Notes: generated by a model not told the origin, from the letters alone. Positions 4,956 through 22,215 are shown, counted from the first letter of the stretch. The stretch: 24,000 nucleotides of DNA from Marinilactibacillus psychrotolerans (GCF_900101525.1 NZ_FMZD01000004.1:55102-79101), one strand, 5' to 3'. Program-made: numbers and translations.

Positions 4956-4981
4956 CCTGAGACAGAAGGAGGGTGATCTAG

Positions 4982-5443
4982 GTGCCTAAAGGTGAAGGCA
5001 AGCTGATTGCTCAAAATAGGAAAGCAAGATATGAATATAGTATATTGGATACGGTTGAAGCTGGGATCGTACTCAATGGAACAGAAATAAAGTCTATCAG
5101 AGCTGGAAGAATCAATCTGAAAGATGGCTATGCAAGTATCCGAAATGGTGAGATGTTCTTATATAATGTGCATATTGCGCCATTTGAAAAAGGGAACCAG
5201 TTTAATCATGATCCATTAAGAACACGAAAATTATTGATGAAGAAAAAACAAATTGATAAATTCGTTGGAGAAGTGAAACAAGGCGGAGTAACAATCGTTC
5301 CATTAAAAGTCTATATAAAAAATGGATATGCTAAAGTGCTTATCGGATTAGCAAAAGGTAAGAAACAATATGATAAGCGTGAATCCATTAAACGCAAAGA
5401 TCAGAAACGACAAGTAGAGCGTGCATTAAAAGACTATCGCTAA
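4982..5443 (+). CDS. smpB: SsrA-binding protein SmpB
   Basis: 153 aa with canonical SmpB sequence ([11 protein letters not shown]...GTEIKS...RTRKLL). GTG start follows an AGGAGGG RBS. Confidence 0.95.
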
Positions 5444-5449
5444 TAAACC

Positions 5450-5489
5450 AATAAATACCAGAGCATCTAAAACGGCTCTGGTATTTATT
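5450..5489. terminator. Bidirectional intrinsic terminator between convergent smpB and the ABC-2 permease gene
   Basis: Perfect 15-bp stem AATAAATACCAGAGC (5450-5464) / GCTCTGGTATTTATT (5475-5489) with a 10-nt loop. Both sides have A/T-rich flanks. Confidence 0.8.
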
Positions 5490-5519
5490 TATATATTCAT
5501 AATCTATAAAAAAAAACGA

Positions 5520-6347
5520 TTAATTTTTCTTATGATAGAGGTACATTGTAATAGGAGCAAAAATAATAAGCAAAGTGCCAGAAGCTGTAAGGGTCCAGAA
5601 AATATCTGAGAGCATAACATTTCCATGCATTAAGCCTCTTACTGCATCAACAAGAATAGTTATTGGATTAATATGAACAAATAGTTCCAAAGAATGAGGC
5701 ATTGTCTCTGGATCTACAAACGCACTGCTTAAGAATGTGAGTGGGAAAATAACCATCATTGCAATAGTCATTAAAGCGTTTTCGGATTTTAAAACCAAAG
5801 CTAATACATTCCAAATCCAGGATAAACAAAATGCAAAGACTAGCAATAAGGCCACTGCAAAAATCAGTCCAAAGAATCCGCCTTGGGGTCTGAAACCTAA
5901 GATCATTGCAAAAATAATCATTATAATGGAAGCGATCGTGTAGCGTAAGGTATCAAACAACATTGCACCAACTAATGAAGATGGAGACCAGATCGGTAAG
6001 GTCCGCTGTCGATCAAAAAAGCCTTTTTGGATATCTTTATTTAAATCGAGTCCAGTATACATCGTGATTTGAGTCACTGCTTGTACTAAGATTCCCGGCA
6101 AAATGAATTGAAGATATTCTTGAACGGAACCCGCAATGGCGCCTCCGAAAAGATACGTAAACAACAGTAAAAATAAAATGGGCATAGCTGTAATATCCAA
6201 TAAAGCCGTCGGTGCATGCTTCGTTCTGAGAAGAGCCCTCATGGCAAAAATTCTTACAGAAGTAAAAGAATTAGGGGGCGATGGCCGCTTTTTAGAAATG
6301 ATAGTCTTCTGTAAGCGATCTTGACTAATCGACTGATTCTGATCCAT
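5520..6347 (-). CDS. ABC-2 type exporter permease (DrrB-like)
   Basis: 275-aa six-TM protein immediately downstream of a DrrA-like ATPase; AAGGAGG RBS. Confidence 0.85.
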   Translation of the reverse strand: MDQNQSISQDRLQKTIISKKRPSPPNSFTSVRIFAMRALLRTKHAPTALLDITAMPILFLLLFTYLFGGAIAGSVQEYLQFILPGILVQAVTQITMYTGLDLNKDIQKGFFDRQRTLPIWSPSSLVGAMLFDTLRYTIASIIMIIFAMILGFRPQGGFFGLIFAVALLLVFAFCLSWIWNVLALVLKSENALMTIAMMVIFPLTFLSSAFVDPETMPHSLELFVHINPITILVDAVRGLMHGNVMLSDIFWTLTASGTLLIIFAPITMYLYHKKN

Positions 6348-6368
6348 AAAAATCCTCCTTATATAAAT

Positions 6369-7316
6369 TTATTCATCTTCAGTTAGAGCCAAAAATACTT
6401 CATCTAAACTGGGCTGACTAAGGGAAAAAGTAACATATTCAATATGCTGAGCAGTTAAATCAGTTAAAGCTTTAGCAGAAGCAGAAGGATCATCTACTTT
6501 AATAAACAATTGCAAACTCTTTGAGGATTCATGTAAAACAGATCCAACACTTTCTTCTAGAATAGTTTCTGCTTTTTCTCGATCAGCTTCGTTCTTTAAA
6601 GTGATATGGAGCATACCTGAGCCGACAGATGATTTTAGTTCTTGTGCTGTTCCTTCAGCAATGATTTTTCCTTTATTGATTACAGCAATTCGGTCTGCTA
6701 ACTGATCAGCCTCTTCTAAATATTGAGTAGTCAGTAAAACAGTGGTCCCGGCTGATGTTAATGCACGAATGACAGCCCAGACTTGGTTTCTGCTTCTAGG
6801 ATCTAATCCTGTCGTTGGTTCATCTAAAAATAATAAGTCAGGGGTCACTACAATACTAGCGGCGATATCTAGACGTCGGCGCATACCGCCAGAGTATTCT
6901 TTAGCTTGTTTAGAAGCTGCTTCCGCTAGCCCGAAAGCTTCCAGTAGTTCAGCTGAACGGATTTTAGCTTCTTTTTTGCTATAGCCCATCAGTCTGGAAA
7001 TCATAACCAGGTTCTCAGTACCTGTCAAATCTTCATCCACAGAAGCATACTGTCCAGTCAGCGCGATACGGGGACGGATTTTTTTAGCTTCTTTGGCAAC
7101 ATCATGACCGAATATCTTAGCTGTTCCATTATCAATTTTTAGCAAAGTAGTTAACATTTTTAAAGTAGTGGTTTTACCAGCACCGTTTGGTCCAAGAAAG
7201 CCATAAACAGTTCCTTTCTGGATTTTCAAGTCAATCTCGTCAACTGCAGTAAAATCCCCAAATTGTTTGTTTAACCCGTGCACTTCAACAGCGTAATCTT
7301 TTATTTCATTTATCAT
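6369..7316 (-). CDS. ABC transporter ATP-binding protein (DrrA/daunorubicin-resistance-like)
   Basis: Walker [13 protein letters not shown] signature YSGGMRRRL, Walker [13 protein letters not shown]. It also has the C-terminal extension typical of DrrA-type ATPases. Confidence 0.9.
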
Positions 7317-7602
7317 GTTACTCCTCCTTTGTTTTGGGGAAATCGGATTACTCAGGATAGAGTGAAAGCCGAAGTTTATAATTATATTCTACATAATACT
7401 TATCTTGAAGTACATTATATTTATGTAAAGTTGAAACGCCAGAGCAAAGGTCAGAATGCTGTTTAGTTGAAGCTGTATTGAATGTTGATATAAGCAATTC
7501 GTTTAAGATTAATATGAACTTTACCTCATTCTCTTAGCATCCGCCATACAAGTCTGTTACAATATATGAGAAAACATATTTTGGAAGGAGCAACAATTCA
7601 TT

Positions 7603-8283
7603 ATGACTAGTAAAGGTGTCACGATTTATTTTGTTCGTCATGGAGAAACGTATTTAAACTATTACGGACGTATGCAAGGATGGAGTAATGCTCCATTAAC
7701 AGATAATGGTATTGAAGATGTTCGTCGATGCGGACGTGGCTTAACTGATGTGAAATTTGACGCAGTCTATACAAGTGACTTAACACGTACACAAGACACA
7801 GCTTCCATCATTTTAGAAGAAAATAAGCAAACTCCAAAAATGGATATGGTACAAATGCCTGAATTCAGAGAAGTATTCTTTGGCTCTTACGAAGGAATGC
7901 CTGGTTCAGAAGCGTGGAAAAAAGTTGCTGAACAGATGGGGTACGCTTCTTCCCGTGACATGTTCTTAAATACAGAAATTCCAGATCGAATGAATGCATT
8001 TAGAGAAACAGATCCTTACCATGATGCTGAAAACTTTATGATGTTCTGGAATCGTGTGGAACAAGGTCTGATTAAATTGATTGACAAACATCGGGATACT
8101 GGAGAGACTATATTACTAGTAGCTCATGGGGGAACAATTCGTTATATACTACAGAACCTGATTCCTGACTTAACAGATACAAAAGCATTGCTGAACGCAA
8201 GTGTATCTGTAGCGGCTTATCACGATGGTAAATATCATCTTGACCGTTACAATGATGTTTCTCATTTTAGAGATGAAGAATAA
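7603..8283 (+). CDS. Histidine phosphatase family protein (phosphoglycerate mutase-like)
   Basis: RHGET catalytic motif (FVRHGETYLN) and downstream HGG. An extended -10 TGtTACAAT lies at 7555-7563. Confidence 0.85.
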   Translation: MTSKGVTIYFVRHGETYLNYYGRMQGWSNAPLTDNGIEDVRRCGRGLTDVKFDAVYTSDLTRTQDTASIILEENKQTPKMDMVQMPEFREVFFGSYEGMPGSEAWKKVAEQMGYASSRDMFLNTEIPDRMNAFRETDPYHDAENFMMFWNRVEQGLIKLIDKHRDTGETILLVAHGGTIRYILQNLIPDLTDTKALLNASVSVAAYHDGKYHLDRYNDVSHFRDEE

Positions 8284-8309
8284 AATTAGTTAGATTTGAG
8301 GATAAAGTA

Positions 8310-9086
8310 TTGAAACCTAAAGCATTAGTATTTTTTGATCTAGATGGAACATTGTTAAATAATCAGTCAGAACTAGACCAGGATGTTATTGAAGCACTGG
8401 AAAAATTAAAAGTAAATGGTGGAGTGCCTTTTATTTCTACAGGTCGTAGTCACCTGCAAGTGGAACATGTATTAAAAGAGACCGCTATTGATTCCTTTAT
8501 TTCTTTAAATGGACAGTATATTCAATATGAAGGTCAAGATATTTATGAAGGAATCTTTGATCAGAGTCTTTTAGATAGGATCCAATCTAAAGTTGAGGAA
8601 ACCGATATTTCAGTTGCCTATTATAGTAAAGATGGATTCAGAATCACTAGAAAAGATAAAAACTCTACTGAAGCGTATGAGTTTATTCATACTGAAGTTC
8701 CAAAAGTCGATCAAGAGTATAAGAATCATCATGAAATTCTGATGGCTTTACTTTTTACAGAAAACACAACGTTAGATGCAGAATTTTTAGAAGAATTTCC
8801 TGAATTATCTTTCTATCGAAACTCGCCTTTCTCTATTGATACGATCCTAAAAGAAAACTCAAAAGCAATTGGAATTAATCGTTTAGTTAATAAATTAGGA
8901 TTTGAAGAGATACCGACTTATGCATTTGGAGACGGTCCAAATGATTTGGAGATGCTTAAAGAAGTCGATTACAGCGTAGCAATGGAAAATGGTACAGCTG
9001 AAGTCAAAGCTGTTGCTGATTATATTGCAAAGAGTAATATCAATGGTGGAATCGTAGACGGATTAAAACATTTCGGACTGATTTAA
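8310..9086 (+). CDS. Cof-type HAD-IIB sugar-phosphate phosphatase
   Basis: FFDLDGTLL motif I, STGR motif II and GDGPNDLEM motif IV; TTG start. Confidence 0.85.
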   Translation: MKPKALVFFDLDGTLLNNQSELDQDVIEALEKLKVNGGVPFISTGRSHLQVEHVLKETAIDSFISLNGQYIQYEGQDIYEGIFDQSLLDRIQSKVEETDISVAYYSKDGFRITRKDKNSTEAYEFIHTEVPKVDQEYKNHHEILMALLFTENTTLDAEFLEEFPELSFYRNSPFSIDTILKENSKAIGINRLVNKLGFEEIPTYAFGDGPNDLEMLKEVDYSVAMENGTAEVKAVADYIAKSNINGGIVDGLKHFGLI

Positions 9087-9095
9087 TTCTAAACA

Positions 9096-9152
9096 AAAAT
9101 CACACATCTTTTTATCATTTGTCAATCGAATGATAGGAAGGTGTGTGATTTT
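9096..9152. terminator. Compound hairpin between convergent genes, probably a bidirectional terminator
   Basis: 11-bp stem AAAATCACACA (9096-9106) / TGTGTGATTTT (9142-9152) enclosing an inner TCATT/AATGA hairpin. Confidence 0.5.
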
Positions 9153-9171
9153 ATGATATTAAGTATAATTT

Positions 9172-9672
9172 TTATTCATCGTCTTCTACTAAAGAAACAG
9201 GATGAAATTCTTTATCTTTACAAAGTAGAAAATTCAATTCAAAATCATTATGGTATCCTTGAAGATTATATACGATATTTTCACCATTCTGCAATCGATC
9301 TTTACGGAACAAAGAAGGATGCAACTTTTTAACCACATCAATTAAAGCAAGTAACAGCATATCTGGTGTCTTTAATAAATTTCTGAAATCCTCATCGCTA
9401 AGTCGGTAACTTTTAAAGAATTCTTCAGTAAAGTCATTGTCCGGTCTAAGAGCAGATACAAAGCGAAGACTAGTAGGAGTCATGTAACGTAACTTAAATG
9501 AATCACTTTCGCGATCATAAATAATGAAGTCAGCTGAATAAAGCTCTTGGTCCATTTCAAATAGCAGCTTATACTTCTTTATATCAATATCATTTAACTT
9601 TGGATCTTCATCAATCATTGTATTGAATTCTTTTAACAAGCTATCCAAAATTCTCATCTGGTCAAAATTCAT
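9172..9672 (-). CDS. Hypothetical acidic cytoplasmic protein (166 aa); no family recognised
   Basis: Long ORF with an AAGGAGG RBS and its own extended -10 (TGcTATAAT, - strand, 9698-9706). I recognise no motif. Confidence 0.6.
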   Translation of the reverse strand: MNFDQMRILDSLLKEFNTMIDEDPKLNDIDIKKYKLLFEMDQELYSADFIIYDRESDSFKLRYMTPTSLRFVSALRPDNDFTEEFFKSYRLSDEDFRNLLKTPDMLLLALIDVVKKLHPSLFRKDRLQNGENIVYNLQGYHNDFELNFLLCKDKEFHPVSLVEDDE

Positions 9673-9783
9673 TTATCGCACCTCCTTTTTCAATTTTATT
9701 ATAGCATTATCAAAAAAAAATCGCACATCAAACCCTAATTAATGCGACATTGAAAGGTTACACCTACTGAACATAGGCTAGGA

Positions 9784-10188
9784 TCAGTTTGTGCGTTTGT
9801 TATGCCATTTCAGTACATTATAAACTTCCACATTTCGAATCAGATCGATATTCACCCTTTTAACTCGTCCATCTTTTAATTGTAATATAATCTTGTCCCC
9901 TAGATAGCCCATAACTAAGCAATGAACATCTGGGTAAAACTGTCCGTTTCTTAACACATTTGCTTGGATGGCAACGGGAGATTTTGTGAGATAAGCCTCG
10001 TAAAGGACTGTTGAAACCTCTTCTATTGTCATTTCTTCTTTAGCGGTGATGTCGCTTTTCTCATCTTCTGCTTTCATCATTTTCAATGCTTCAGAGTGAT
10101 CTGACAGCATCATTCCTTGCCATTTCTTTATTCCTCGATCTTTATACCCTAACTTATCTGGATTAAGTAGAATGACTTCTTCTGACAT
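9784..10188 (-). CDS. YolD-like protein (PF08863-type)
   Basis: The motif KDRGIKKWQGMMLSDHSEAL resembles the YolD-like signature. I prefer ATG 10188 (MSEEV..., RBS AAAGGGG) because the track's longer ORF (to 10242) runs into the promoter and LexA box. Confidence 0.7.
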   Translation of the reverse strand: MSEEVILLNPDKLGYKDRGIKKWQGMMLSDHSEALKMMKAEDEKSDITAKEEMTIEEVSTVLYEAYLTKSPVAIQANVLRNGQFYPDVHCLVMGYLGDKIILQLKDGRVKRVNIDLIRNVEVYNVLKWHNKRTN

Positions 10189-10229
10189 AGTGATTACCCC
10201 TTTATGCGAATGCATGTTTGTATAGTTTA

Positions 10230-10258
10230 ATAATAGGAACATTCGTTCGAATAGTCAA
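10230..10258 (-). promoter_or_regulatory. Sigma-A-type promoter TTGACT-N17-TATTAT with a LexA (Cheo/SOS) box in the spacer
   Basis: On the - strand the -35 TTGACT is at 10258-10253 and the -10 TATTAT at 10235-10230. The 17-nt spacer contains GGAACATTCGTTCG (10236-10249), which fits GAAC-N4-GTTC. Confidence 0.65.
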
Positions 10259-10439
10259 GTAGAATAATTTGAAATTCCTAACCCGTATCAAGAATGACTT
10301 AGAGGGCTCCTCGTTAGCGTCCTTAGCAATTTTTTTTGATGGGGTTTATTTTAGAAAAATAAGGGGAGCAATGATTGTTTTAAGCAGTTTCATCAACTAT
10401 ACTATGGGTAAACTGAGACTCAAGGAGGAGGAAATAAAA

Positions 10440-10877
10440 ATGAATAGAATCAATCTTATTGCCTTAGGCGTTCAAAATATGGAAAGAGCACTGACTTTTT
10501 ATAAAGGAATAGGGTTTAAATGTTATGAGGATTCTTCCAATCCACCTATCGTATTTTTTGATAATCAAGGGACGAAGTTAGAGTTGTTCCCTTTAAAAGA
10601 GCTGGCACAGGATATTAATGCGCAAACACCCCCGACTATCACACAACAAGGTTTTAATGGAATTACTTTTGCAATTAATACAAAAGAAAAAAGAGAAGTG
10701 GATGAACTGATGGCGTTAGTAAAAGAAAAGGGCGGTACGATAGCCAAAATACCCGAAACTGTATCGTGGGGTGGCTATAGTGGATATTTTCAAGACCCAG
10801 ATGGTTATTATTGGGAAGTGGCCTATGCAGATAGCTGGAAATTTGATGAGCATAATATGTTGGTGATTGAGCCGTGA
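10440..10877 (+). CDS. VOC/glyoxalase-bleomycin resistance family protein
   Basis: The C-terminal FQDPDGYYWEVA motif is typical of the VOC fold. ATG 10440 follows GGAGGAGG; the track's upstream extension from 10269 has no RBS. Confidence 0.8.
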   Translation: MNRINLIALGVQNMERALTFYKGIGFKCYEDSSNPPIVFFDNQGTKLELFPLKELAQDINAQTPPTITQQGFNGITFAINTKEKREVDELMALVKEKGGTIAKIPETVSWGGYSGYFQDPDGYYWEVAYADSWKFDEHNMLVIEP

Positions 10878-10911
10878 TATATAGAAAAGTTTAAAAAGAG
10901 GAGAAATAAGT

Positions 10912-11334
10912 ATGATAGAAATGAAAAGGGTAGGAATGGAAACACTAGATTCAATGGTCGAAAAAGTCTTTGCTGAACAAGATATAGATCATTTTGGAAG
11001 TATAGTGGAAACAAATAAAGAAAAAATAGCCATAGGAGCTTACTTAGACAAGAAGTTAGTCGGAGGAATCGTTGCGGATAAAGAGTACCAAACGATCCAT
11101 GTTTCCTTATTAGTGATTACTCAAGACGCTAGAGGATTATCAATAGGCAGTAAATTGTTGCAGGAAATTGAAACAATCGCAAAAGAAAAGGGCATCATTC
11201 ATATCACTCTTACAACGAGAAGTTATCAAGCAGTCGACTTTTATAAAAAGAATGGCTATACAGTTTTTGCAACCTTAGAAGATATGCCAATAGAAGGCGT
11301 AACAAAGTACTACTTTGATAAAAGACTAAAGTGA
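10912..11334 (+). CDS. GNAT-family N-acetyltransferase
   Basis: 140 aa with an acetyl-CoA-binding motif-A-like segment (ARGLSIGSKLLQEIE) and the tail AVDFYKKNGY. Confidence 0.85.
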   Translation: MIEMKRVGMETLDSMVEKVFAEQDIDHFGSIVETNKEKIAIGAYLDKKLVGGIVADKEYQTIHVSLLVITQDARGLSIGSKLLQEIETIAKEKGIIHITLTTRSYQAVDFYKKNGYTVFATLEDMPIEGVTKYYFDKRLK

Positions 11335-11478
11335 ATAAAGAGTTATCTTCTTAAATATGAATCTCTGTTAGTATTGTTTCTTTGGTCTTTTACTTACGCC
11401 TCTTCAAGTAAGTTTATACAGTAACGTCTTTAGGGTGAGAGTTATTTTGTTGCTTTTTTGTAGCTAAGGTTCTGTATT

Positions 11479-11961
11479 CTATTTTCCTTTTTCAATTTGA
11501 ATATTCGTTTCATTTTCAGTAGCACTTTGAGAAACTAATCTTGCTTGTTCTGCTTTTAATTTTTCTACTTCTTTTTTTAGCTGATTGATCTGCTCATCAA
11601 TATTTGCTAAAGTGACTACTTTGCTTTGTTCTTCCGGGGACATATTTTCTTGTTCTAATTGCTCTTTTTTATTTTGCAAAGCAGTACTATCGAATGTCAC
11701 CAAAATCTCTCCTTTTTTGACCTCTTGATTTTCTTCAAGATTATTTACTTTGATTTTTGTTTCTAGTGGCATATGTTGGTCTTCTGTTTTAGTTGCGGTT
11801 AGTTGAGCCGATGTCCGGATAAAAACTTCTTCTTTTGTAAAAGTCAAGAATAGACTAACCAAGAGAAAGAAAATAATTACAGAGTATAGCACCCACCGAT
11901 AGAATTTCTGATGTTGTTGACTATATATACCTGAGTGGTCAAGCCAGTCGTTCTTATGCAT
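11479..11961 (-). CDS. Bacteriocin ABC-transporter accessory protein (HlyD/ComB-like); N-terminal fragment only (160 aa)
   Basis: It has an N-terminal cytoplasmic stretch, one TM helix (WVLYSVIIFFLLVSLFLTF), the start of the lipoyl-like segment (EVKKGEILVTFDS) and the beginning of a coiled coil. It lies 18 nt downstream of the C39 ABC exporter gene. Typical family members are roughly three times longer. Confidence 0.7.
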   Translation of the reverse strand: MHKNDWLDHSGIYSQQHQKFYRWVLYSVIIFFLLVSLFLTFTKEEVFIRTSAQLTATKTEDQHMPLETKIKVNNLEENQEVKKGEILVTFDSTALQNKKEQLEQENMSPEEQSKVVTLANIDEQINQLKKEVEKLKAEQARLVSQSATENETNIQIEKGK

Positions 11962-11979
11962 TGTTTTGCCTTCCTTATC

Positions 11980-14133
11980 TTAAATTTCCCATAATTGTTG
12001 GTAGAGGCCCTCATTGTAACGCAAATCATCATGGGTACCTTGCTCCACCAATTTTCCTTCGTTAAGTACTAAAATTTGATTACAGACTTTGGCTATAGGT
12101 AAATGATGAGCAATAAAAATCAAGGTTTTCATTTCTAAATTTATCAGGTAGTCTAAAATTGTATGCTCTAAGAACCTATCCAGTCCACTGGTCGCCTCAT
12201 CTAATATTAGGACATCAGCGTCTTTCAATAAGGCACGAGCAATAGCCAATCTTTGCCGTTGACCACCAGAAAGATTGGTTCCGCCCTCTTCTATTATTGT
12301 GTCGTAACGTAAGGGTTGCTGGTTAATAAATGCGCTCAATTGAACTGCATCGCAAACTTCAACTATTCGTTCAAAGCTAGGTGAGATATCTAAGCTAAAG
12401 GTTAAATTCTCAATGATAGATCCACTAAAAAAGAATGATTCCTGGGGAATATAAGTTACTCGGTCGCGTAATTGATGAAAAGGAATGTCTAAATGGTTGA
12501 TATGACCATAACGAATAGTTCCTTCAGACGGGGAGTAAAAATTTACTAGTAATTTTGCTAAGGTAGATTTTCCCGAACCACTAACGCCAACAAAGGCAAC
12601 CTTACTAAATGGTGGAATAGTACAAGATAGATTACTCAAAGTTGGAGGATTCATTTTGTAAGAAAATGAAACATCTTCTAAGCTAATTCCCTGTTGAAAT
12701 GTTTGATCTGTAACAACACGATTAGGGTGTTGGTTAACTGACTCCGTTTCAATAGCAAGAATTTCATTTAAACGTTTGTTGGCAACTTGTGCTGTCTGCA
12801 TTTTTACCTGTAAATTAATGATATTTTGTAAAGGATCAGTAAAAAAAACAAGCAGCGCATTATAAGTAATAAGTTGACCTAAGCTAATCGTACCATCCAT
12901 GACGTAATAAGAACCTACCCATAAAATTAGTGCGCTACTGATTAACTGAATAGCGTGTTTGATGCCTTGTTGGATATTGTCTAAGGTTGACGTACGAAAA
13001 GACTTTTTCATCAATTTAACAAATTCTCGATCGACTAGATCATAGACTTTTTCTTCACCATTGTATGCCTTAATGGTTTCAATCCCCTTAAGGCTTTCAA
13101 TAATACTAGAATTTAAAGTTGCACCAGCAATCATTTCTTCTTGATTCGCTTTTTCATGGTTTTTGACAAAAGCTAAAATAGCAACTAAATAAAAAGGTAA
13201 CGAGGCTAAAGTGATCAAAAATAAGGTAACATTTTGAAAGGCTAAGGTAATCCCTACAATTACGACCATACCAATGTCTAAAAAAACAGACAAGGTGGCA
13301 CTTGCTAAAGCATCAATAATTTTATTAGCGTCAAGAAAACGAGAAATGATTTCTCCCGATTTACGAGTAGCAAAAAAATTCATTGGCAAAGAAAGTACGT
13401 GCTTAAAATATTGAAGCATTATCGTCATACTCATACGTTGGCCCAATATAACTAAGATATAATTTCGGCTATATTCAAATATGATACGAAAGAAGTAGAT
13501 AACAATTAATCCCACAGAGACAACGTTTAAAGCAGAACGGGCTTGGTTAGGAATAAAAAAATCGAGAATTCCTTGAAAATAGAAAGAACTTCCTATGCCA
13601 AAAGAAGTAATAAAAATTGATGCTAAAATAATATTAAAAACAAGCCCTTTTTGATGCCAAATAACTGGTAAAAAAGAATTTATGCTCGCAACTTTTTCTT
13701 TACTAGGAAAGTAAGTTTCTTTGGGAGTAGGCAATAATAAAATACCTGTCCATTCTTTAGCAAATTCTTCAATCGTTATTTTTACTTTCCCTATAGCTGG
13801 GTCATCAATTAATAAGGTCTTTCCTTTTATTCCATAAACAACTACATAATGCATATAGCTATTTTCAATTACAATATGTGCAATTAAAGGTAGTGGTAAC
13901 TCTTTTTCTCCCCACACATCATTATCCGCTTGAACAGCGGGGCAATCAAAAGATAAATGTTCAAATGTTTTCTTTAATCCAAAAGCTGTGGTTCCTTCTA
14001 AATCAGTTCCTGAAAAATCACGTAATTTGTGAATGGAAATTTCTGTCTTGTAATGTTTTAAAATCATGGATATACAAGAAACACCACAATCTTTTTCGTC
14101 TTGTTGCTGAATATGAGTAAAAAGTTTCATCAA
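11980..14133 (-). CDS. Bacteriocin-processing ABC exporter with an N-terminal C39 double-glycine peptidase domain
   Basis: C39 catalytic Cys context QQDEKDCGVSCISMILKHY, six-TM domain, Walker A GVSGSGKST, signature LSGGQRQRL, Walker B LILDEATSGLD. The start is TTG 14133 or ATG 14130. Confidence 0.95.
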   Translation of the reverse strand: MMKLFTHIQQQDEKDCGVSCISMILKHYKTEISIHKLRDFSGTDLEGTTAFGLKKTFEHLSFDCPAVQADNDVWGEKELPLPLIAHIVIENSYMHYVVVYGIKGKTLLIDDPAIGKVKITIEEFAKEWTGILLLPTPKETYFPSKEKVASINSFLPVIWHQKGLVFNIILASIFITSFGIGSSFYFQGILDFFIPNQARSALNVVSVGLIVIYFFRIIFEYSRNYILVILGQRMSMTIMLQYFKHVLSLPMNFFATRKSGEIISRFLDANKIIDALASATLSVFLDIGMVVIVGITLAFQNVTLFLITLASLPFYLVAILAFVKNHEKANQEEMIAGATLNSSIIESLKGIETIKAYNGEEKVYDLVDREFVKLMKKSFRTSTLDNIQQGIKHAIQLISSALILWVGSYYVMDGTISLGQLITYNALLVFFTDPLQNIINLQVKMQTAQVANKRLNEILAIETESVNQHPNRVVTDQTFQQGISLEDVSFSYKMNPPTLSNLSCTIPPFSKVAFVGVSGSGKSTLAKLLVNFYSPSEGTIRYGHINHLDIPFHQLRDRVTYIPQESFFFSGSIIENLTFSLDISPSFERIVEVCDAVQLSAFINQQPLRYDTIIEEGGTNLSGGQRQRLAIARALLKDADVLILDEATSGLDRFLEHTILDYLINLEMKTLIFIAHHLPIAKVCNQILVLNEGKLVEQGTHDDLRYNEGLYQQLWEI

Positions 14134-14166
14134 TGTACAGTGGTCCTTTCAAAATTAAGTTAATAT

Positions 14167-14907
14167 TTATTTCAATTTTTCTTTAATTAGTTTTGCTTTC
14201 CCTAATGCAAAGTTTCTTACTAAGTCAGATTCAAAATAAACAGCACGTTTTTTAAAATTAATTTCTTTTGCATTAATTAAATTCACTAAACAAGATCGAT
14301 TAATCTTGAATAAAGTAGGGTATTTTTTTTCTAATTCAACTAACTTTCCATAAAATTCATATTGACCATTTTTAGTATATAGAGATAATCTATGGGGAAG
14401 CTTAGAAGATTCTAAAAAATAAATATCTTGTAAATCAAGAGTAAATGTTTGAGACCCGATAGAAAATATAAATGCTTGGTTTAAACTAATTTTTGCTTCA
14501 TCAATTCTTTTCTGAGCAAGGAGTAGTAAATCTACAATTTCTGACCGATAGTTATCCAAAGGTTGATCTTTTATCACAAAACCTAATGTTTCCACACGTC
14601 TTTTAATAGTTAAAGGGATCATTTCATCATGTGTTGTAATGAAAATGATTTTTGCTTGGACATCTTGCGCACGTATTTTTTCCGCTAGATCAATTCCGGT
14701 TATAGTGTGGTTTAAATCAATATCTAAAAAGTAAATTCCCTGCTTAGGTTTAAACTTTTTTAAGTAATTTTCTACTTCGTCTGGGCTTTGTGTTTTTAAA
14801 CTGATTTGGAAAAGATCACTATGAAAAAGTGTGAAATTTTGAATGATTGTTTCAATCTGTTGTAGTTGAATAAGTTGATCTTCACAAATAATAATAGGAT
14901 AAGTCAT
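14167..14907 (-). CDS. LytTR-family (AgrA/ComE-like) response regulator
   Basis: N-terminal receiver domain (ICEDQ..., phospho-Asp context YFLDIDL) and a C-terminal LytTR DNA-binding domain (...INRSCLVNL...). Confidence 0.9.
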   Translation of the reverse strand: MTYPIIICEDQLIQLQQIETIIQNFTLFHSDLFQISLKTQSPDEVENYLKKFKPKQGIYFLDIDLNHTITGIDLAEKIRAQDVQAKIIFITTHDEMIPLTIKRRVETLGFVIKDQPLDNYRSEIVDLLLLAQKRIDEAKISLNQAFIFSIGSQTFTLDLQDIYFLESSKLPHRLSLYTKNGQYEFYGKLVELEKKYPTLFKINRSCLVNLINAKEINFKKRAVYFESDLVRNFALGKAKLIKEKLK

Positions 14908-14920
14908 AATAGTTCCTTTC

Positions 14921-16210
14921 TTACCACATCAGGATAATACTAGTGATGAATGTAGAGTTTTTCATTTTGTATTGAATAAACATATTTTGAGTTTTTTCAT
15001 TTATTTCTTGAATCGTGTTCATTCCTAATCCTTTATGATCCGCTTTTGTTGAAACACCCTTTTCCATCAACTTTCTGATAGAAAGGTTAGTTCCTTTATA
15101 GCTATTTTCAAGAAGAAATTCAAGCTGTGAGTCATCTTGATAAATCATAAGAGATAATTTCCGTTCTTCGCTTTCTTTAGAGGCTTCTATTGCATTATCA
15201 AGAACAATACCCAATATTCTTACACAATCAAAAATCGGAATAGGGACTAGTTCAATAGTTTGGTTACATTCTAATTGAATATCTAACTGATTTTCATTTG
15301 CTTGATAAATTTTCGAAATAAAAAGACTTTTTAAATATGAATTTTTTATATTCTTTAATTGTTGACTGCTACTTGATATATCCTTTACAAAATAATGATT
15401 AGAATACTTATCTAATTCATGGACTTGTTTCGAAAAATCTATGTCTTTTTTTAAGTAAGAGATTTCTTTTAAACTGAGTAATAAATTTTTGTAATCATGT
15501 TTAAACTTATTTAGTTTTTCTTGACTTTGTTCTAACTGATCAGTGTATCTCTTTAAATAAATAAGTTCTTGTTCTTTCAACCGTTGCTCATATGTTTCTT
15601 TTTGCTTCTTAGTTGTTCGAACACCTAAAATAAAAATAAATATGGTCTGCACGACAAGGAAAACTAAAATTCCTAAAATGAATTGATCAAATACTTTATA
15701 TTGATGCGCAGTATATGATATGAAGAAAGAAATTCCCCATAGGTAAATCATGCACATAAAAGTTGTAATAGAACTATAGCTTTTAATGATTTTCTGAATA
15801 CTTACCTTTTTGTATAACAAAACAAATATAGTTAGCAAGAAACATTCAAAAATTATTTGTATAATTACATAGTCATAATCATTAACTCCTTGGAAAAATC
15901 TGGGTATCATCAATAATGAGCTAATGATTGATATACTATAACTTACGAGTAAACTTAGCATGAGCTTATTTAAAAGGACAATTTTCTTGTTCCCGTTCTC
16001 TCTCAAGAAAAAATAACTACTAATTATCGGTATCAAATCAGAAAAATCGGTAAATAATTCGATAAAAAAGGTAATTGGAATAAGCACAATTACCTTTGAA
16101 TATTTACTAATTGTAGCTTCATCTTTAGTAACAAAGAATATTAAGAAGTAAAAAATAAAAATATTTATTAACATACGTAGTAAGTAAGCCTTTGTATCAA
16201 TGATAATCAA
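14921..16210 (-). CDS. Peptide-pheromone sensor histidine kinase (HPK10, AgrC/ComD-like)
   Basis: Polytopic N-terminal half with multiple TM helices. H-box FKHDYKNLL, N-box LGIVLDNAIEA and G-box region HKGLGMN. TTG start at 16210 follows GGGAGG. Confidence 0.85.
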   Translation of the reverse strand: MIIIDTKAYLLRMLINIFIFYFLIFFVTKDEATISKYSKVIVLIPITFFIELFTDFSDLIPIISSYFFLRENGNKKIVLLNKLMLSLLVSYSISIISSLLMIPRFFQGVNDYDYVIIQIIFECFLLTIFVLLYKKVSIQKIIKSYSSITTFMCMIYLWGISFFISYTAHQYKVFDQFILGILVFLVVQTIFIFILGVRTTKKQKETYEQRLKEQELIYLKRYTDQLEQSQEKLNKFKHDYKNLLLSLKEISYLKKDIDFSKQVHELDKYSNHYFVKDISSSSQQLKNIKNSYLKSLFISKIYQANENQLDIQLECNQTIELVPIPIFDCVRILGIVLDNAIEASKESEERKLSLMIYQDDSQLEFLLENSYKGTNLSIRKLMEKGVSTKADHKGLGMNTIQEINEKTQNMFIQYKMKNSTFITSIILMW

Positions 16211-16252
16211 GAAAATACCTCCCTGATTAAATTATACGAAAGTTAAAGATTA

Positions 16253-16396
16253 TTAGCAGTTTTTGAAAAAAGAAAAGACACATTGTGCTAAATTAGATGA
16301 GGGGGCCCCTTTAGTTACTGATTTATTACCGCCTCGTATTTGTTTTAATTTTTTTTCAGAACACTCTTCAATTTTTAAGTCTTTTTTATCGTTCAC
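16253..16396 (-). CDS. Induction peptide (bacteriocin-like pheromone) precursor, 47 aa, with a double-glycine leader
   Basis: Absent from the ORF track (<60 aa). My manual translation is (M)NDKKDLKIEECSEKKLKQIRGG / NKSVTKGAPSSNLAQCVFSFFKNC. GTG start at 16396-16394 lies 7 nt after a GGAGGG RBS (16409-16404, - strand). The stop is 42 nt upstream of the kinase gene, the canonical IP-HK-RR order. Confidence 0.8.
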   Translation of the reverse strand: MNDKKDLKIEECSEKKLKQIRGGNKSVTKGAPSSNLAQCVFSFFKNC

Positions 16397-16460
16397 TTTT
16401 ATTCCCTCCAATTTTTTTACAGAGATAGTATGCCATACATTTAGTTATAAAACGAAAAAC

Positions 16461-16491
16461 TTTCCTGAAACGCTAGTAAATTATTCCTGAA
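16461..16491 (-). promoter_or_regulatory. Pair of LytTR-type direct repeats (TTCAGGAAT / TTCAGGAAA, 22-bp phasing) for the IP-HK-RR-ABC operon promoter
   Basis: On the + strand these read ATTCCTGAA (16483-16491) and TTTCCTGAA (16461-16469). A candidate -10 (CATACT/TACTAT, - strand, 16425-16432) lies about 28-30 nt beyond the proximal repeat. Confidence 0.6.
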
Positions 16492-16516
16492 CAATATAAC
16501 CGATAGAAAGTATAGG

Positions 16517-16547
16517 TTAAGGAAGAGTATCGTTGTAGTTCAGGAAT
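16517..16547 (+). promoter_or_regulatory. Pair of LytTR-type direct repeats (TTAAGGAAG / TTCAGGAAT, 22-bp phasing) for the bacteriocin gene promoter
   Basis: Repeats lie at 16517-16525 and 16539-16547. A candidate extended -10 TGgTACAGT (16573-16581) is 28 nt after the proximal repeat; an alternative -10 is TATTAT at 16587-16592. Confidence 0.6.
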
Positions 16548-16623
16548 AAACATTCCACGAATAAAAAAATTGTGGTACAGTCAGCGTATTATCAAAATAT
16601 TTTATGAAGGAGCGTGTGATTAC

Positions 16624-16809
16624 ATGCAAAAGGTTAAAGAACTTAGCGTTAAAGAAATGCAACAAACTAAAGGAGGGAAATATTATGGAAATGGTGTTTC
16701 TTGTAATAAAAAAGGATGCACTGTAGATTGGGGAAAAGCTATTGGAATTATCGGAAATAATGCAGCAGCAAATTGGGCTACAGGCGGAGCCGCTGGTTGG
16801 AATAAATGA
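16624..16809 (+). CDS. Class IIa (pediocin-like) prebacteriocin: 18-aa double-glycine leader plus 43-aa mature peptide
   Basis: [18 protein letters not shown] / [43 protein letters not shown]. It has the YGNGV pediocin box, the Cys9/Cys14 disulfide pair and a GG cleavage site. AAGGAG RBS at 16607-16612. The track's 16570 start is an upstream extension. Confidence 0.95.
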
Positions 16810-16850
16810 TAACTAAAGATACTCATTTTTATATTGTAAAAAAATAAAGA

Positions 16851-16891
16851 AAATACCCATCCATGGTATTACATAACATAGATGGGTATTT
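16851..16891 (+). terminator. Hairpin between the bacteriocin and immunity genes (11-bp stem, 19-nt loop), a possible attenuating terminator
   Basis: AAATACCCATC (16851-16861) pairs with GATGGGTATTT (16881-16891); only a short T-rich tail follows. Confidence 0.45.
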
Positions 16892-17066
16892 ATACTTGCA
16901 CGGGTCTTTTTAGGCAAAGTTTGATATCGAACATGGGTTATAGTTATATTTTATAGTTTCAACAATTATGTTCTACTAGTCAAGCTAAGGCATTTTCAAC
17001 GGCATGTAAAGAAATATACAATATCAATCAAAATTAAAAGTATATTGAATTTAGGAAGGATATTTT

Positions 17067-17363
17067 ATGAGCAAATTAAAATGGTTTTCCGGAGGAAATG
17101 AACGGGCGAAACAAGCAGAAAAAATTATGACTGATTTATTAGATGATCTAAAAACAGACTTAGGTAACGAGTCGCTACAAAAAGTGTTAGAGAATTATCT
17201 TGAAGAGTTAAAACAAAAGAGCGCTTCTGTTCCTATGATTTTGAGTCGAATGAACTTAGATATTTCTAAAGCAATCAGAAATGATCGAGCTGTTTTATCA
17301 GACTATCAATCAAAAAAATTAAAAGAGTTGACTTCCGTATCCAATATTAGATATAAATATTAA
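17067..17363 (+). CDS. Class IIa bacteriocin immunity protein (four-helix-bundle, EntA/PisI/MunC-type)
   Basis: 98 aa. The start MSKLKWFSGG and end SNIRYKY closely resemble my recollection of the mundticin/piscicolin immunity proteins. It lies downstream of the bacteriocin gene; AGGAAGGA RBS. Confidence 0.9.
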   Translation: MSKLKWFSGGNERAKQAEKIMTDLLDDLKTDLGNESLQKVLENYLEELKQKSASVPMILSRMNLDISKAIRNDRAVLSDYQSKKLKELTSVSNIRYKY

Positions 17364-17437
17364 TAGTGGATACAAAGGTATGACTCCAATATAATAGTTT
17401 GTCAGTGTGATAAAATGAATCGTACTGTAGTCTATGC

Positions 17438-17487
17438 AAAAAAAACATCTGATTCCTTTAATTTAAAGGAATCAGATGTTTTTTAGG
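17438..17487. terminator. Bidirectional intrinsic terminator shared by the immunity gene and ssrA
   Basis: Near-perfect long palindrome AAAAAACATCTGATTCCTTTAA / TTAAAGGAATCAGATGTTTTTT, flanked by an A-run and a T-run. Confidence 0.8.
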
Positions 17488-17508
17488 TTACGATTGAACT
17501 TACACAAT

Positions 17509-17875
17509 GGAGTTGAGGGGAGTCGAACCCCTGTCCAGACACATTGGCACTCAAGCCTCTACGTTCATAGTTACACTATTAGATTTCGCTCAACATTAGC
17601 CGCATAACAGGCGTCATGTGTCGCTAGTCTGGTAATCTCTTCTTATTCTTACAGACGGAAAGAATAAGCGTATCCCACTTAATTATAGGACCCAAACGTG
17701 ACACGTGGGCGATGCCAGTTCGGATCACGCTAATAAGCTGTTATTACGCAGCTAAAGCGTAAGTGTTATTATTATTGTTTGCAGTTATATTTAACTGTGA
17801 CGTTGGTATGCAGTCTCGTCACCTGCAGAACGCAACTCAAGCTCAATCTATGCCTGTCGAATCCGTAACAACCCC
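17509..17875 (-). ncRNA. ssrA: tmRNA (SsrA), about 367 nt; tag reading frame GCA AAC AAT AAT AAT AAC ACT TAC GCT TTA GCT GCG TAA TAA
   Basis: On the - strand the 5' end reads GGGGTTGTTACGGATTCGACAGG and the 3' end GGACAGGGGTTCGACTCCCCTCAACTCCA. The acceptor stem has a G3:U pair (Ala identity). The UUAAAUAUAACU element sits directly before the resume codon, as I recall for Bacillus tmRNA. The tag is (A)ANNNNNTYALAA with two stops (17741-17782). CCA is not encoded. Confidence 0.95.
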
Positions 17876-19191: not shown

Positions 19192-19642
19192 CCAGATAAG
19201 CCTCTACCTTCTTTCGTTAATAATCATATAGTTAATAAAATATTAACGGAATTATAATATTGGTATTAAATATATTACAATTCTAAAATTTATAAGTGAA
19301 TTTGTAAATAAAAAAAGTGAATAATTAAAATTCTATAATAAATAACAATACCAATTTTATAATTATTCTATTCAAATATAAACAATGAATAAGAAATAAT
19401 AAATAATGAATGTAAGGCATAAAACTCTAATAAGGTAATAGATACGGGAAACTCAACGTTTGAAATTAATAGATATGGAGATATTGAGTAACTAAAAACA
19501 GGAAAATACTAACATAAAGTAACTTGTTCAAAAAAGTGTCACATTTATTCTGCAATCGATTTCAAATCGCTAGAAAAACGTGTGTATAACATATTAAATG
19601 CGAATTATAAGTATTGTTTATTGAATTTACTGACAATTACCA

Positions 19643-19671
19643 TTGACTTTATCATTTAATAAATATAAAAT
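19643..19671 (+). promoter_or_regulatory. Candidate sigma-A promoter for the amidohydrolase/permease operon (TTGACT-N17-TAAAAT)
   Basis: -35 TTGACT at 19643-19648 and -10 TAAAAT at 19666-19671, about 85 nt upstream of ATG 19755. Confidence 0.4.
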
Positions 19672-19754
19672 TTGAAAAAGATTATAAAAATGTGTGTATT
19701 CTAATTTTATAGATTTAAATACATAATTCATTAGACAGAAGGAGTGGAGGATAA

Positions 19755-20981
19755 ATGGGATATAAAATTTGGGAAGAAGCGTTAGCTGCTAATTATAAAA
19801 CGACTGTTTCATGGAGAAGACAGTTACATGAGAATCCAGAACCTTCTTTCGAAGAATATGAAACCCGGAAATATATTGCGGATAAATTAAAATCGTTTGG
19901 GTATGAAGAAATTGAGGAAGAAGTAGGGGGTGGCGGAATTGTTGCTTATCTGAGAGGAAAGCAAGAAGGACCAACAATTGGATTTAGAGCAGACTTTGAT
20001 GCTTTAAAAATTCAAGAAGCTACCGGATTATCTTTTTCATCTAAAAATCCCGGTGTTATGCATGCCTGTGGACATGATGGACATACAGCAACCTTGCTTA
20101 GTGTAGCCAAGGTAATGAAAGAGTATCAGTCTAGTTTATCTGGCACAGTAAAATTTATCTTTCAACATGCAGAAGAAGTTTTACCAGGTGGCGGAAAGGC
20201 AATGGTTGATGCAGGTGTATTAGATGATGTGGATTTCATATATGGACTTCATCTGAGATCACCTCTTGAATACGGTAAAGTTACTTATTGTTCTGGTTAC
20301 GCTATGGCTGCTCCGGACTTCTTTGAAATTAAGATACAGGGTAAAGGTGGACATGCAGCGCATCCTAATGCCACAGTTGATTCAGTTGTGATCGCCTCTT
20401 ATGTAGTGAATCAGCTCCAATCAATCATTAGCCGTAAAAAAGATCCGACTAAATCAGGGGTCCTAACATTCTCTACCCTTAAAGCCGGGGATGGAGCAAA
20501 TAATGTTATTGCGGACAAAGCTTTTCTCAAAGGAACAGTTCGTACATTTGATCCTGAAGTAAGAAATATGATAGAAGATAAAATCAAATTTATGACAGAA
20601 CAAATTTGTAAAGCACATGATGCAACCTGTGAAGTCAATTATGGACGTGGCTATCCAGCGCTTTATAATCATGAAACAGAAACTGAAATAATTGCTGATT
20701 TATTTAAAGAAACATTTGGCGAAGAAACGGTTGAATCAACCCCGTTGCGTATGGGAGGAGAAGATTTTGCTTACTTCTTAGAAGAAAAGCCTGGTTCATT
20801 TTTCTTCGTTAATTCAGGTAATGAAGAAAAGGGAATCATTTATCCTCACCATCACCCAAAATTTGACTTTGATGAACGTGCACTCTTGTTAGGTGGTAAG
20901 TGCTTCTTAGCCATCATTGATCATTACTTGACCGAGAAAGAAACGCATAAAGTTAAAGCATCATCAGTTGTGGGAGAATAG
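19755..20981 (+). CDS. M20D-family amidohydrolase (N-acyl-L-amino acid amidohydrolase / hippurate hydrolase-like), paralog 1
   Basis: MHACGHDGH metal-binding motif, conserved QHAEE and GGEDFAYF, and HHHPKF near the C-terminus. Confidence 0.9.
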   Translation: MGYKIWEEALAANYKTTVSWRRQLHENPEPSFEEYETRKYIADKLKSFGYEEIEEEVGGGGIVAYLRGKQEGPTIGFRADFDALKIQEATGLSFSSKNPGVMHACGHDGHTATLLSVAKVMKEYQSSLSGTVKFIFQHAEEVLPGGGKAMVDAGVLDDVDFIYGLHLRSPLEYGKVTYCSGYAMAAPDFFEIKIQGKGGHAAHPNATVDSVVIASYVVNQLQSIISRKKDPTKSGVLTFSTLKAGDGANNVIADKAFLKGTVRTFDPEVRNMIEDKIKFMTEQICKAHDATCEVNYGRGYPALYNHETETEIIADLFKETFGEETVESTPLRMGGEDFAYFLEEKPGSFFFVNSGNEEKGIIYPHHHPKFDFDERALLLGGKCFLAIIDHYLTEKETHKVKASSVVGE

Positions 20982-21027: not shown

Positions 21028-22215
21028 ATGGCATATGAAACATGGGCAGATGAATTAAAACAAAATTTTGATGAAACCGTCAGCTGGAGAAGGCATTTAC
21101 ATGAACATCCAGAACCTTCATTTGAAGAAAAAGAAACAGCACAGTTTATTTTGGCAAATTTAAAAGAATTTGGGGTAGAAGACATTCAAACGAATGTGGG
21201 TAATGGATATGGAATTGTCGCAAGAATTAAGGGCGCCCATCCTGGACCAACTATTGCGTTACGTGCTGACTTTGATGCCTTAAGAATAAAAGAAGAAGCG
21301 AATGTTCCTTTCAAATCAAAAAAAGAAGGATTCATGCATGCTTGTGGGCATGACGGACATACGGCTTCACTCTTGAGCGTCGCAAAAGTGTTAGTTAATC
21401 ATAAAGATGAATTAAAAGGGAATGTTGTTTTACTTCACCAGAATGCTGAAGAAGTTTTACCTGGAGGAGCCAAGTCAATGGTCGAAGCAGGCGCTTTGGA
21501 AGATGTGGACTATGTATTTGGTATTCATTTAGGAGCTACGCAGGAATTAGGGAAAGTCTACTATAATTATCGTTTTGGATCAGCCAATTCAGATACCTTT
21601 AGATTAAATATTCAAGGAAAAGGTGGACATGGTGCAGCGCCACATGATACGCATGATGCTTTGACGATTGGCACACAAATCGTGTCAAGCTTACAGCAGA
21701 TTGTAAGTCGTTTAGCTGATCCCGTTAAACCGGCTGTTTTGACCTTTGCAGGGTTTAATGCTGGTGGTGAAGCATATAACATCATTGCAGATACAGCTGA
21801 GATCAAAGGAACGATTCGAACGATGCATAAAGAAATACAGGATCTGATGGAGAGTAAATTAAAATCAATTAGCACAGGGATTGCAGAAGCTTTTGATGCA
21901 ACATTAGCTATTGATTATGTTAGAGGTTATCCATCGATTCAAAATGATCCAGCACAAGTGGAAAGAATTAAACAAAAATTTTCAACCGTATTTACAGAAG
22001 AGCTTATGGAAGAAGAAGTAGAAGGATCTATGGGGGGAGAAGATTTTGCTTATTTCTTAAAAGAAAAGCCAGGGGCATTTTTAAGAGTGGGGGCAAAATT
22101 TCCAGAAGATGAGTCTCCATATCCACATCATCATCCTAAATTTGTGATTCATGAAGACTCTTTATTAAGATCTGGAGAAGTATTTTTAGCCATTATTGAT
22201 GAATACCTTAGTTAG
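21028..22215 (+). CDS. M20D-family amidohydrolase, paralog 2 (tandem duplicate)
   Basis: Same motif set (MHACGHDGH, QNAEE, GGEDFAYF, HHHPKF). It is colinear with paralog 1 and roughly half the residues look identical by eye. Confidence 0.9.
   Translation: MAYETWADELKQNFDETVSWRRHLHEHPEPSFEEKETAQFILANLKEFGVEDIQTNVGNGYGIVARIKGAHPGPTIALRADFDALRIKEEANVPFKSKKEGFMHACGHDGHTASLLSVAKVLVNHKDELKGNVVLLHQNAEEVLPGGAKSMVEAGALEDVDYVFGIHLGATQELGKVYYNYRFGSANSDTFRLNIQGKGGHGAAPHDTHDALTIGTQIVSSLQQIVSRLADPVKPAVLTFAGFNAGGEAYNIIADTAEIKGTIRTMHKEIQDLMESKLKSISTGIAEAFDATLAIDYVRGYPSIQNDPAQVERIKQKFSTVFTEELMEEEVEGSMGGEDFAYFLKEKPGAFLRVGAKFPEDESPYPHHHPKFVIHEDSLLRSGEVFLAIIDEYLS

Follow-up and report, generated by a model that had tools for sequence, protein, structure and literature searches.

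A piscicolin 126 family bacteriocin cluster in Marinilactibacillus psychrotolerans, and its apparent deletion in other strains that keep the immunity gene

Piscicolin CM22 has been purified and is antilisterial, and the gene cluster of its producer, Carnobacterium maltaromaticum CM22, has an arrangement like that of the piscicolin 126 clusters in strains UAL26 and JG126 (PMC12634766). The clusters for piscicolin CM22 and piscicolin 126.2 are 93% and 94% identical, in that order, to the piscicolin 126 cluster (PMC12634766, PMC9504619), and the promoters of pisA and of pisNKR-T-E both lie within the single pisN-pisA intergenic region (PMC9504619). We analysed a stretch of 24,000 nt from Marinilactibacillus psychrotolerans (GCF_900101525.1, NZ_FMZD01000004.1:55102-79101; hereafter the window), in which an earlier note made from the sequence alone had described a pheromone-regulated class IIa bacteriocin block beside ssrA, the transfer-messenger RNA (tmRNA) gene. 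The pheromone-controlled class IIa locus is real but ordinary, being a diverged copy of the well-studied Carnobacterium piscicolin 126 cluster. We think it likely that the M. psychrotolerans locus is orthologous to the clusters of the piscicolin 126 family, with the mechanism and history set out below.

Mechanical listing of open reading frames found seven genes, six of which score above curated family thresholds (Table 1), in the divergent order pisE-pisT-pisR-pisK-pisN on the minus strand and pisA-pisI on the plus strand. The component list of the earlier note was borne out at its coordinates, a short accessory protein excepted, and matches to PF01721, PF08951 and NF033383, alignments to AgrC and AgrA, and the LytTR and C39 domains agree with its description of a three-component, pheromone-regulated class IIa locus. 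Every protein has exact matches in M. psychrotolerans, and individual names for all of the cluster proteins have already been assigned by NCBI PGAP.

The nearest relative of the bacteriocin, a 62 aa peptide (P0003), led to a group of loci (L007-L011), each of which aligns to the window as a single 5.8 kb blastn block with 86% identity. L009 is C. maltaromaticum CM22, with pisA at 131,370-131,558 and the immunity gene at 131,814-132,110, equal to the coordinates in PMC12634766, and with a calculated mature peptide mass of 4431.9 against the theoretical 4431.93 of that paper. P0003 itself has T3N, T16K and V25L, the changes that define piscicolin 126.2 (PMC9504619). All seven genes of the locus recur in the CM22/126.2 cluster, in identical order and orientation; the two also have the promoter repeat boxes and an adjoining ssrA in common, and the proteins are 77-93% identical, the truncated PisE (PisE') aside. 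The earlier note had given the gene order as differing from that of piscicolin 126, a claim that falls because the same divergent layout is found in the CM22/126.2 cluster of C. maltaromaticum, itself arranged like piscicolin 126 (PMC12634766), and in that of Listeria monocytogenes.

The pisA product begins with an 18 aa double-glycine leader directly before KYYGNG, followed by a 43 aa mature peptide with a calculated mass of 4385.9 Da with one disulfide. It has the YGNGV box and Cys-X4-Cys pair of class IIa bacteriocins and a PF01721 match above the gathering score, and a cognate immunity gene lies 257 bp downstream. The precursor has 92% identity with that of piscicolin CM22/126.2 and 85% with a piscicolin-126-like one, and the solved structures that it matches are those of enterocin HF, sakacin P and pediocin. 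Among 5.8 billion proteins, the nearest relative of PisA was the CM22/126.2 peptide (90% for the cluster representative, 92% for P0003); next came the piscicolin-126-like peptide (85%) and peptides of Enterococcus and Vagococcus (80-82%), and then enterocin HF and sakacin P. The product of the downstream gene, PisI, aligns end to end (residues 1-98) with the piscicolin 126 immunity protein (PDB 2K19, E=1.6e-49), and also matches the mundticin KS immunity protein (2ZRR).

The regulatory half of the locus has the three-component arrangement, with the gene for a GG-leader induction peptide directly upstream of genes for an AgrC-like kinase and a LytTR regulator. The PisN leader ends in GG, giving the predicted 24 aa mature peptide NKSVTKGAPSSNLAQCVFSFFKNC, and the protein is identical to CM22 PisN at 36 of 47 residues. 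PisK, 81% identical to its CM22 counterpart, aligns to AgrC over residues 17-423, and has approximately five to six hydrophobic segments in residues 1-195 and the H-box FKHDYKN at residue 238. PisR is 93% identical to CM22 PisR and aligns to AgrA along its length, with the acidic pocket kept. A scan for PisK in one genome per species returned no close relative and only a 23%-identical clostridial kinase, the exact-word method used being too strict.

Direct-repeat pairs about two helical turns apart upstream of promoters are the arrangement expected for LytTR regulators. The 227 bp pisN-pisA intergenic region contains two direct-repeat pairs with 22 bp spacing, one facing each gene, which we interpret as putative PisR binding sites. 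They are the only two good matches to the repeat pair in the 24 kb (chance expectation 0.59 at the 3-mismatch setting), and the promoter-proximal repeats are conserved in the alignment with Carnobacterium and Listeria. The central, facing TTCAGGAA repeats form a perfect 12 nt inverted repeat (16481-16492 and 16538-16549). Upstream of pisI there is no PisR-type repeat pair, and pheromone control of pisI from a promoter of its own was rejected on that ground. The presence of sigma-70-like sites in front of pisI, without a repeat pair, fits the persistence of this gene in strains that have no pisA promoter.

The export genes present a more mixed picture. PisT is 88% identical to CM22 PisT and combines, as expected for TIGR01193, a C39 peptidase, a six-helix membrane domain and an ATPase in one chain (Pfam C39, ABC_membrane and ABC_tran); it has kept the DCG catalytic Cys as well as the Walker A, signature and Walker B motifs. 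PisE', which the earlier note had listed as a short accessory protein and thereby as a native feature of the locus, proved to be truncated: only its residues 1-118 correspond (68% identity) to the 326 aa PisE of C. maltaromaticum CM22, and the remaining 42 aa tail is unrelated. CM22 PisE scores 348 bits against TIGR01000 (cut-off 258.85) and has an HlyD_3 domain at residues 190-282. No HlyD_3 domain was found in PisE', and the TIGR01000 match is limited to profile positions 1-115 of 457, which indicates a truncated gene as opposed to a naturally short one. One transmembrane-like segment is retained (residues 24-42). DNA homology to the Carnobacterium cluster ends at 11619, inside pisE', and just 285 bp separate pisE' from the GNAT gene, so that the distal half of pisE is absent, not frameshifted. 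Searching the 24 kb window by tblastn did not find the C-terminal half of PisE elsewhere, which ruled out its relocation within this distance by inversion. Profile matches of PisE' to HlyD-family models extend to about residue 147, and the 42 aa tail may be what is left of the coiled coil of a formerly longer PisE.

The signalling and killing steps that we propose for the locus are drawn by homology from characterised class IIa systems. The PisN precursor would be cut after its GG leader and exported by PisT, and the accumulated 24 aa peptide would activate PisK, by which PisR would be phosphorylated. PisR would then bind the TTCAGGAA-N14-TTCAGGAA pairs, switching on pisA and the pisNKRT(E') operon. 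The 43 aa YGNGV peptide, also processed and exported by PisT, would kill Listeria and related Firmicutes via the mannose phosphotransferase permease, and the producer would be protected by PisI.

The block was compared with 15 other M. psychrotolerans loci (L001-L006, L013 and L015-L022), all of which lack it, in keeping with the accessory, strain-variable status that had been suggested. Blastn homology of these loci to the window runs to ~11441 and resumes inside pisA, leaving ~5.2 kb missing, and in 15 of 15 there is one common junction, at which the left flank is joined to the region of the pisA ribosome-binding site (RBS) and start (~16610-16625). Where the contig reaches far enough upstream, the block-less order is GNAT, ~510 bp, immunity gene, ssrA and Sir2; L005 differs on the right side, where a prophage lies at ssrA and the locus ends within the prophage. 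The block-less pisA has lost its start codon and carries small deletions, in-frame stops and scattered amino-acid changes, with a recognisable 3' end. Between two AAAGGA repeats, 42 bp (46 bp in some alleles) have been deleted, and with them the GG cleavage site and the YGNGV box. What these loci retain (the 3' half of pisA, part of the leader, the pisA-pisI spacer with its hairpin, and pisI) is 95-99% identical to the window, L005 being the lowest, and pisI is intact (98 aa) in all 15. In the ~150 bp downstream of the junction, ~230-380 bp upstream of pisI, the pisA stump still specifies 28-30 residues from the C-terminus of the bacteriocin. Only a handful of contigs, three in one look-up and five in another, and perhaps all from one strain, carry the proteins for bacteriocin, pheromone, kinase, regulator, transporter and accessory function; assembly GCA_019650195.1 is one that bears the block. 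Many strains, by contrast, have the immunity protein and its GNAT, Sir2 and M20 neighbours, the immunity gene being on dozens of contigs. The immunity gene lies outside the variable segment, and the view that the whole block is accessory stands for the ~5.2 kb segment and fails for this gene.

The presence of a pisA remnant at the common junction in block-less strains implies that a complete pisA once stood at this site and that the window allele is the older state. Read from these sequences, the within-species variation is deletion of an older locus, not recent insertion, and the block-less strains are predicted to be immune non-producers. The opposite direction, a recent insertion into the window strain with the block-less state ancestral, was implied by the earlier note and agrees with the AT-richness of the block and with its rarity, at five contigs against dozens for the immunity gene. 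Such an insertion would have had to restore the missing 5' part of pisA exactly, in a species whose block-less members hold a pisA pseudogene with secondary deletions and stops, and in which every strain examined has the immunity gene; we regard it as highly improbable. With deletion as the preferred reading, it should be noted that the left breakpoint (~11441) lies ~40 bp beyond the stop codon of truncated pisE (11479), meaning that two separate events ended almost at one place. A short similarity between AGGGTGAGAG (11432-11441) and the pisA RBS region AAGGAGCGTG (16607-16616) weakly suggests how the second deletion may have been guided.

How far the surviving allele still works is a closer question. 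With every gene but pisE intact, regulation and immunity should work in the window strain, bacteriocin export may be weakened by the PisE truncation, and we put the chances that the strain still exports its peptide without a complete PisE at near even. The strain could be a fully working producer in which PisT alone is enough and PisE' is dispensable or contributes via its membrane anchor. The other genes, intact with their catalytic motifs and under purifying selection, favour such a producer, as does the occurrence of the same 160 aa form of PisE', with one substitution, in a second sample (P0026), so that this form has persisted. The mundticin KS locus functions with an ABC transporter alone and without an accessory gene. 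Against this stand the loss of the whole HlyD barrel domain, the position of the retained part of PisE' as the most diverged cluster protein (ratio of non-synonymous to synonymous substitution rates, dN/dS, 0.29) and the requirement for accessory proteins in the lactococcin A and mesentericin systems, and we hold full function to be possible, at somewhat less than an even chance. Alternatively, the locus may be on its way out, a transient cluster that releases no bacteriocin and whose useful parts are immunity and perhaps the sensing of foreign pheromone. The truncation of pisE points in this direction, as does the state of the rest of the species, which has already deleted the block and kept pisI. 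The best antilisterial M. psychrotolerans cheese strains, moreover, are mostly without a known bacteriocin cluster (PMC11545730). Six of the seven genes are nevertheless full length with conserved motifs, and 5 kb of sequence contain neither a frameshift nor a stop; decay of this kind is a serious possibility that we would still not bet on.

As to where the cluster came from, the foreign origin that had been proposed is supported. The G+C content of the block is 30.9%, against 36.2% and 36.6% in the flanks, with 26.7% in the kinase and 27.8% in the regulator gene, an AT-richness that the earlier note had seen. The cluster has 31% G+C in all three hosts (M. psychrotolerans, Carnobacterium and Listeria), indicating that the low G+C content travels with it. 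Comparison of the cluster genes with those of CM22 gave dN/dS values of 0.07-0.29 at dS 0.36-0.63, which argues for long-term purifying selection and for a transfer that was not recent.

In L007 and L009 (Carnobacterium) and in L010 and L011 (Listeria monocytogenes), the cluster is followed by helix-turn-helix (HTH), DUF3173, Rep_trans and tyrosine integrase genes. Between the end of the integrase gene and the 3' end of ssrA lie ~80 bp, and the far boundary of the element is marked by a partial ssrA 3' copy; islands that have inserted at a tmRNA gene are typically recognised by such an integrase at ssrA together with a partial copy. A segment of ~10.9 kb, ssrA included (L010 3975-14878, L009 3975-14874), is 98.9% identical between C. 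maltaromaticum CM22 and L. monocytogenes. Internalin genes lie in the flanks on both the L010 and the L011 contig, and the tmRNA tag of L010 is GKEKQNLAFAA. In the window, 141 bp separate the end of pisI from the ssrA 3' end, in the same orientation as in the Carnobacterium/Listeria element. The window therefore has one feature of a tmRNA-gene island, the position at the ssrA 3' end, and is missing the integrase and the displaced ssrA copy; a look for att-like similarity at the left junction gave nothing convincing. From the common position and orientation we judge that the window cluster is probably the fossil of an ssrA-targeting integrative element. In M. psychrotolerans L005, the ssrA 3' end is occupied by a prophage right after pisI, with homology to the window stopping at 17524, which demonstrates that ssrA is an integration site in use in this species. 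This prophage (4913-12754) encodes RecT, an anti-repressor, repressor-like HTH proteins and an integrase that shares only 27% identity with the integrase of the pis element.

We propose that the cluster was acquired from elsewhere, most likely carried by an integrative element that targets ssrA, like that of C. maltaromaticum and L. monocytogenes; next to go would have been the mobility genes together with the distal half of pisE, and a single ~5.2 kb deletion in most strains would then have left the pisA stump and the immunity gene. More speculatively, the piscicolin cluster may spread between Carnobacteriaceae and L. monocytogenes on a ~10.5 kb ssrA-targeting element, of which the M. psychrotolerans locus and orphan pisI would be fossils, and the orphan pisI may provide M. 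psychrotolerans with a standing resistance against bacteriocins of the piscicolin type; to this joint proposal we assign a probability that falls just short of even. Of the 12 papers that our literature search listed, none joined piscicolin with an integrase or with tmRNA.

A number of points weigh against the mechanism and history that we prefer. No similarity to the integrase, Rep, HTH or DUF3173 proteins was detected by tblastn across the whole window (all E>0.4), nor was a second copy of the 24 nt ssrA 3' end found in it at up to three mismatches, and the case for origin from an element is for that reason circumstantial. The relatives in Vagococcus (P0070) and Enterococcus ferrettii (P0069) are neither at ssrA nor accompanied by integrases, making the ssrA link specific to the pis lineage. 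Several class II systems cannot do without their LcnD-type accessory protein, and the window strain may consequently not secrete its peptide. The three NCBI assemblies with an intact block may all be one strain, and a literature search found no paper on a class IIa bacteriocin of M. psychrotolerans. Finally, selection on pisI is weakly supported, since within the species there are four polymorphic codons, two synonymous and two non-synonymous, and dN/dS is uninformative.

Several further observations concern the surroundings of the cluster in other genomes. In the C. maltaromaticum contig L007, a second, orphan pisI-like gene (3269-3565, within 3100-3606) lies just outside the left end of the element, with 89% DNA identity to the pisI region, and may be the leftover of an earlier element at the same site. 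The pis cluster of L008 is followed (10898-12178) by an ISL3 transposase and not by the integrase module, with no tmRNA within 20 kb, so that the cluster has moved by more than one route. The pis-ssrA segment of the window is inverted relative to the order in C. maltaromaticum (phosphatase, HAD hydrolase, ssrA, element). A Vagococcus sp. locus (L024, 1515-10614) encodes a peptide that is 80% identical, with the same C-terminal half, within the same divergent core of pheromone, kinase and regulator genes on one side and bacteriocin and immunity genes on the other; the LcnD-type accessory gene of this locus (452 aa) is found at a distance of 4 kb, and between 2874 and 5259 no gene for a transporter was called.

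The features of the locus are collected in Table 1. A generic promoter and terminator scan of the window was at background level, and the tmRNA was the sole match in an Rfam search of it.

Table 1. Features of the pis locus and its surroundings, with positions in the window; family scores are given as bits / curated cut-off
Feature	Position	Strand	Evidence
pisE' (truncated LcnD/HlyD-type bacteriocin-secretion accessory, 160 aa)	11479..11961	-	TIGR01000 117.7 bits, below cut-off 258.85
pisT (peptide cleavage/export ATP-binding cassette (ABC) transporter, N-terminal C39 peptidase)	11980..14133	-	TIGR01193 838 bits, cut-off 523.85
pisR (AgrA-like response regulator, LytTR DNA-binding domain)	14167..14907	-	LytTR 53.8/22.6; Response_reg 36.9/30.2
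pisK (AgrC-like, HPK10-type membrane histidine kinase)	14921..16210	-	PF14501 GHKL 54.4/22
pisN (induction-peptide precursor)	16253..16396	-	NF033383 EntF family 69.2/35; PF19159
Direct-repeat pair TTCAGGAA-N14-TTCAGGAA upstream of pisN, putative PisR site	16462..16491	-	0 mismatch
Direct-repeat pair TTAAGGAA-N14-TTCAGGAA upstream of pisA, putative PisR site	16517..16546	+	One mismatch to pattern
pisA (class IIa prebacteriocin)	16624..16809	+	PF01721 44.8/24.5
Terminator-like hairpin, weak T tail, between pisA and pisI	16851..16891	+	19 nt arms, 89% complementary; kept in block-less strains
Sigma-70-like sites upstream of pisI	16921-16950 and 16993-17022		Generic promoter scan at background level
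pisI (immunity protein, 98 aa)	17067..17363	+	PF08951 37.3/22.1
Perfect 45 nt palindromic hairpin, bidirectional-terminator-like, in pisI-ssrA gap	17440..17484		Self-complementary blastn match
ssrA (tmRNA), 3' end towards pisI	17505..17875	-	Rfam RF00023 186.8 bits; ARAGORN
Stretch colinear with piscicolin CM22/126.2 cluster	11619..17389		86% nt identity
Segment missing from 15 other M. psychrotolerans loci	11442..16625		blastn breakpoints, junction alignments

Elsewhere in the window, ssrA (17505-17875) is on the opposite strand to smpB (4982-5443), 12 kb apart. Two ABC-2-type transporter genes on the minus strand (5520-6347 and 6369-7316), between smpB and a phosphatase gene, are absent from L002-L004 and present in L001, and the region 5490-7508 is a second strain-variable segment. 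A 560 bp intergenic stretch of ~22% G+C and with no Rfam match (19192-19754) lies upstream of tandem M20 peptidase paralogues at 19755-20981 and 21028-22215, which share ~66% DNA identity.

The locus adds a natural 43 aa variant, from a halotolerant and psychrotolerant bacterium of cheese rinds and marine habitats, to the antilisterial piscicolin 126/sakacin P subgroup. The comparison of strains is more useful than the locus itself, as it offers a clean case of bacteriocin cluster loss with immunity kept, and so bears on the dynamics of producer, immune and sensitive strains in smear-cheese communities. It also calls for caution with genome mining: the 'sakacin P' hits reported for two M. psychrotolerans cheese strains (PMC11545730) could be the pisA pseudogene, and such hits in this species may in general be the dead stump. 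The near-identical piscicolin cluster and immunity gene on an integrase-bearing element in L. monocytogenes bear on the durability of Carnobacterium-based biopreservation. If the proposal of a mobile element is true, a cassette for production plus immunity is already circulating among food-protective cultures, cheese-rind commensals and the target pathogen.

Set beside described systems, the locus resembles Islander-type islands (PMC4383910) through its Carnobacterium/Listeria homolog, where an integrase adjoins the regenerated 3' end of ssrA and a partial copy has been displaced to the far end; the window, without integrase or att repeat, is at most a fossil of such an island. It departs from the CM22/126.2 cluster in having PisE cut to 160 aa and no integrase/Rep module, in a pheromone that differs at 3 of 24 mature positions, and in a mature peptide that, compared with piscicolin CM22, carries L7V and T20K and lacks the C-terminal Gly (43 against 44 aa). 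With piscicolin 126 it shares the colinear, divergent gene set, short of a full-length PisE, as well as an immunity protein that matches 2K19 and a bacteriocin in the same IGNNxxANxxTGG subgroup; relative to a piscicolin 126 sequence checked by mass alone, the mature peptide has N12K, S19G, L33W and T34A and has lost Gly44. Orphan class IIa immunity genes and remnant clusters are known in non-producers, for example the sakacin P homolog clusters of Latilactobacillus sakei. Most M. psychrotolerans strains are like these in that the immunity gene is intact and the structural gene next to it is dead. Unlike the L. sakei remnants, all 15 of their loci have a single deletion junction in common, and their species still has, at this very site, the intact allele from which they derive.

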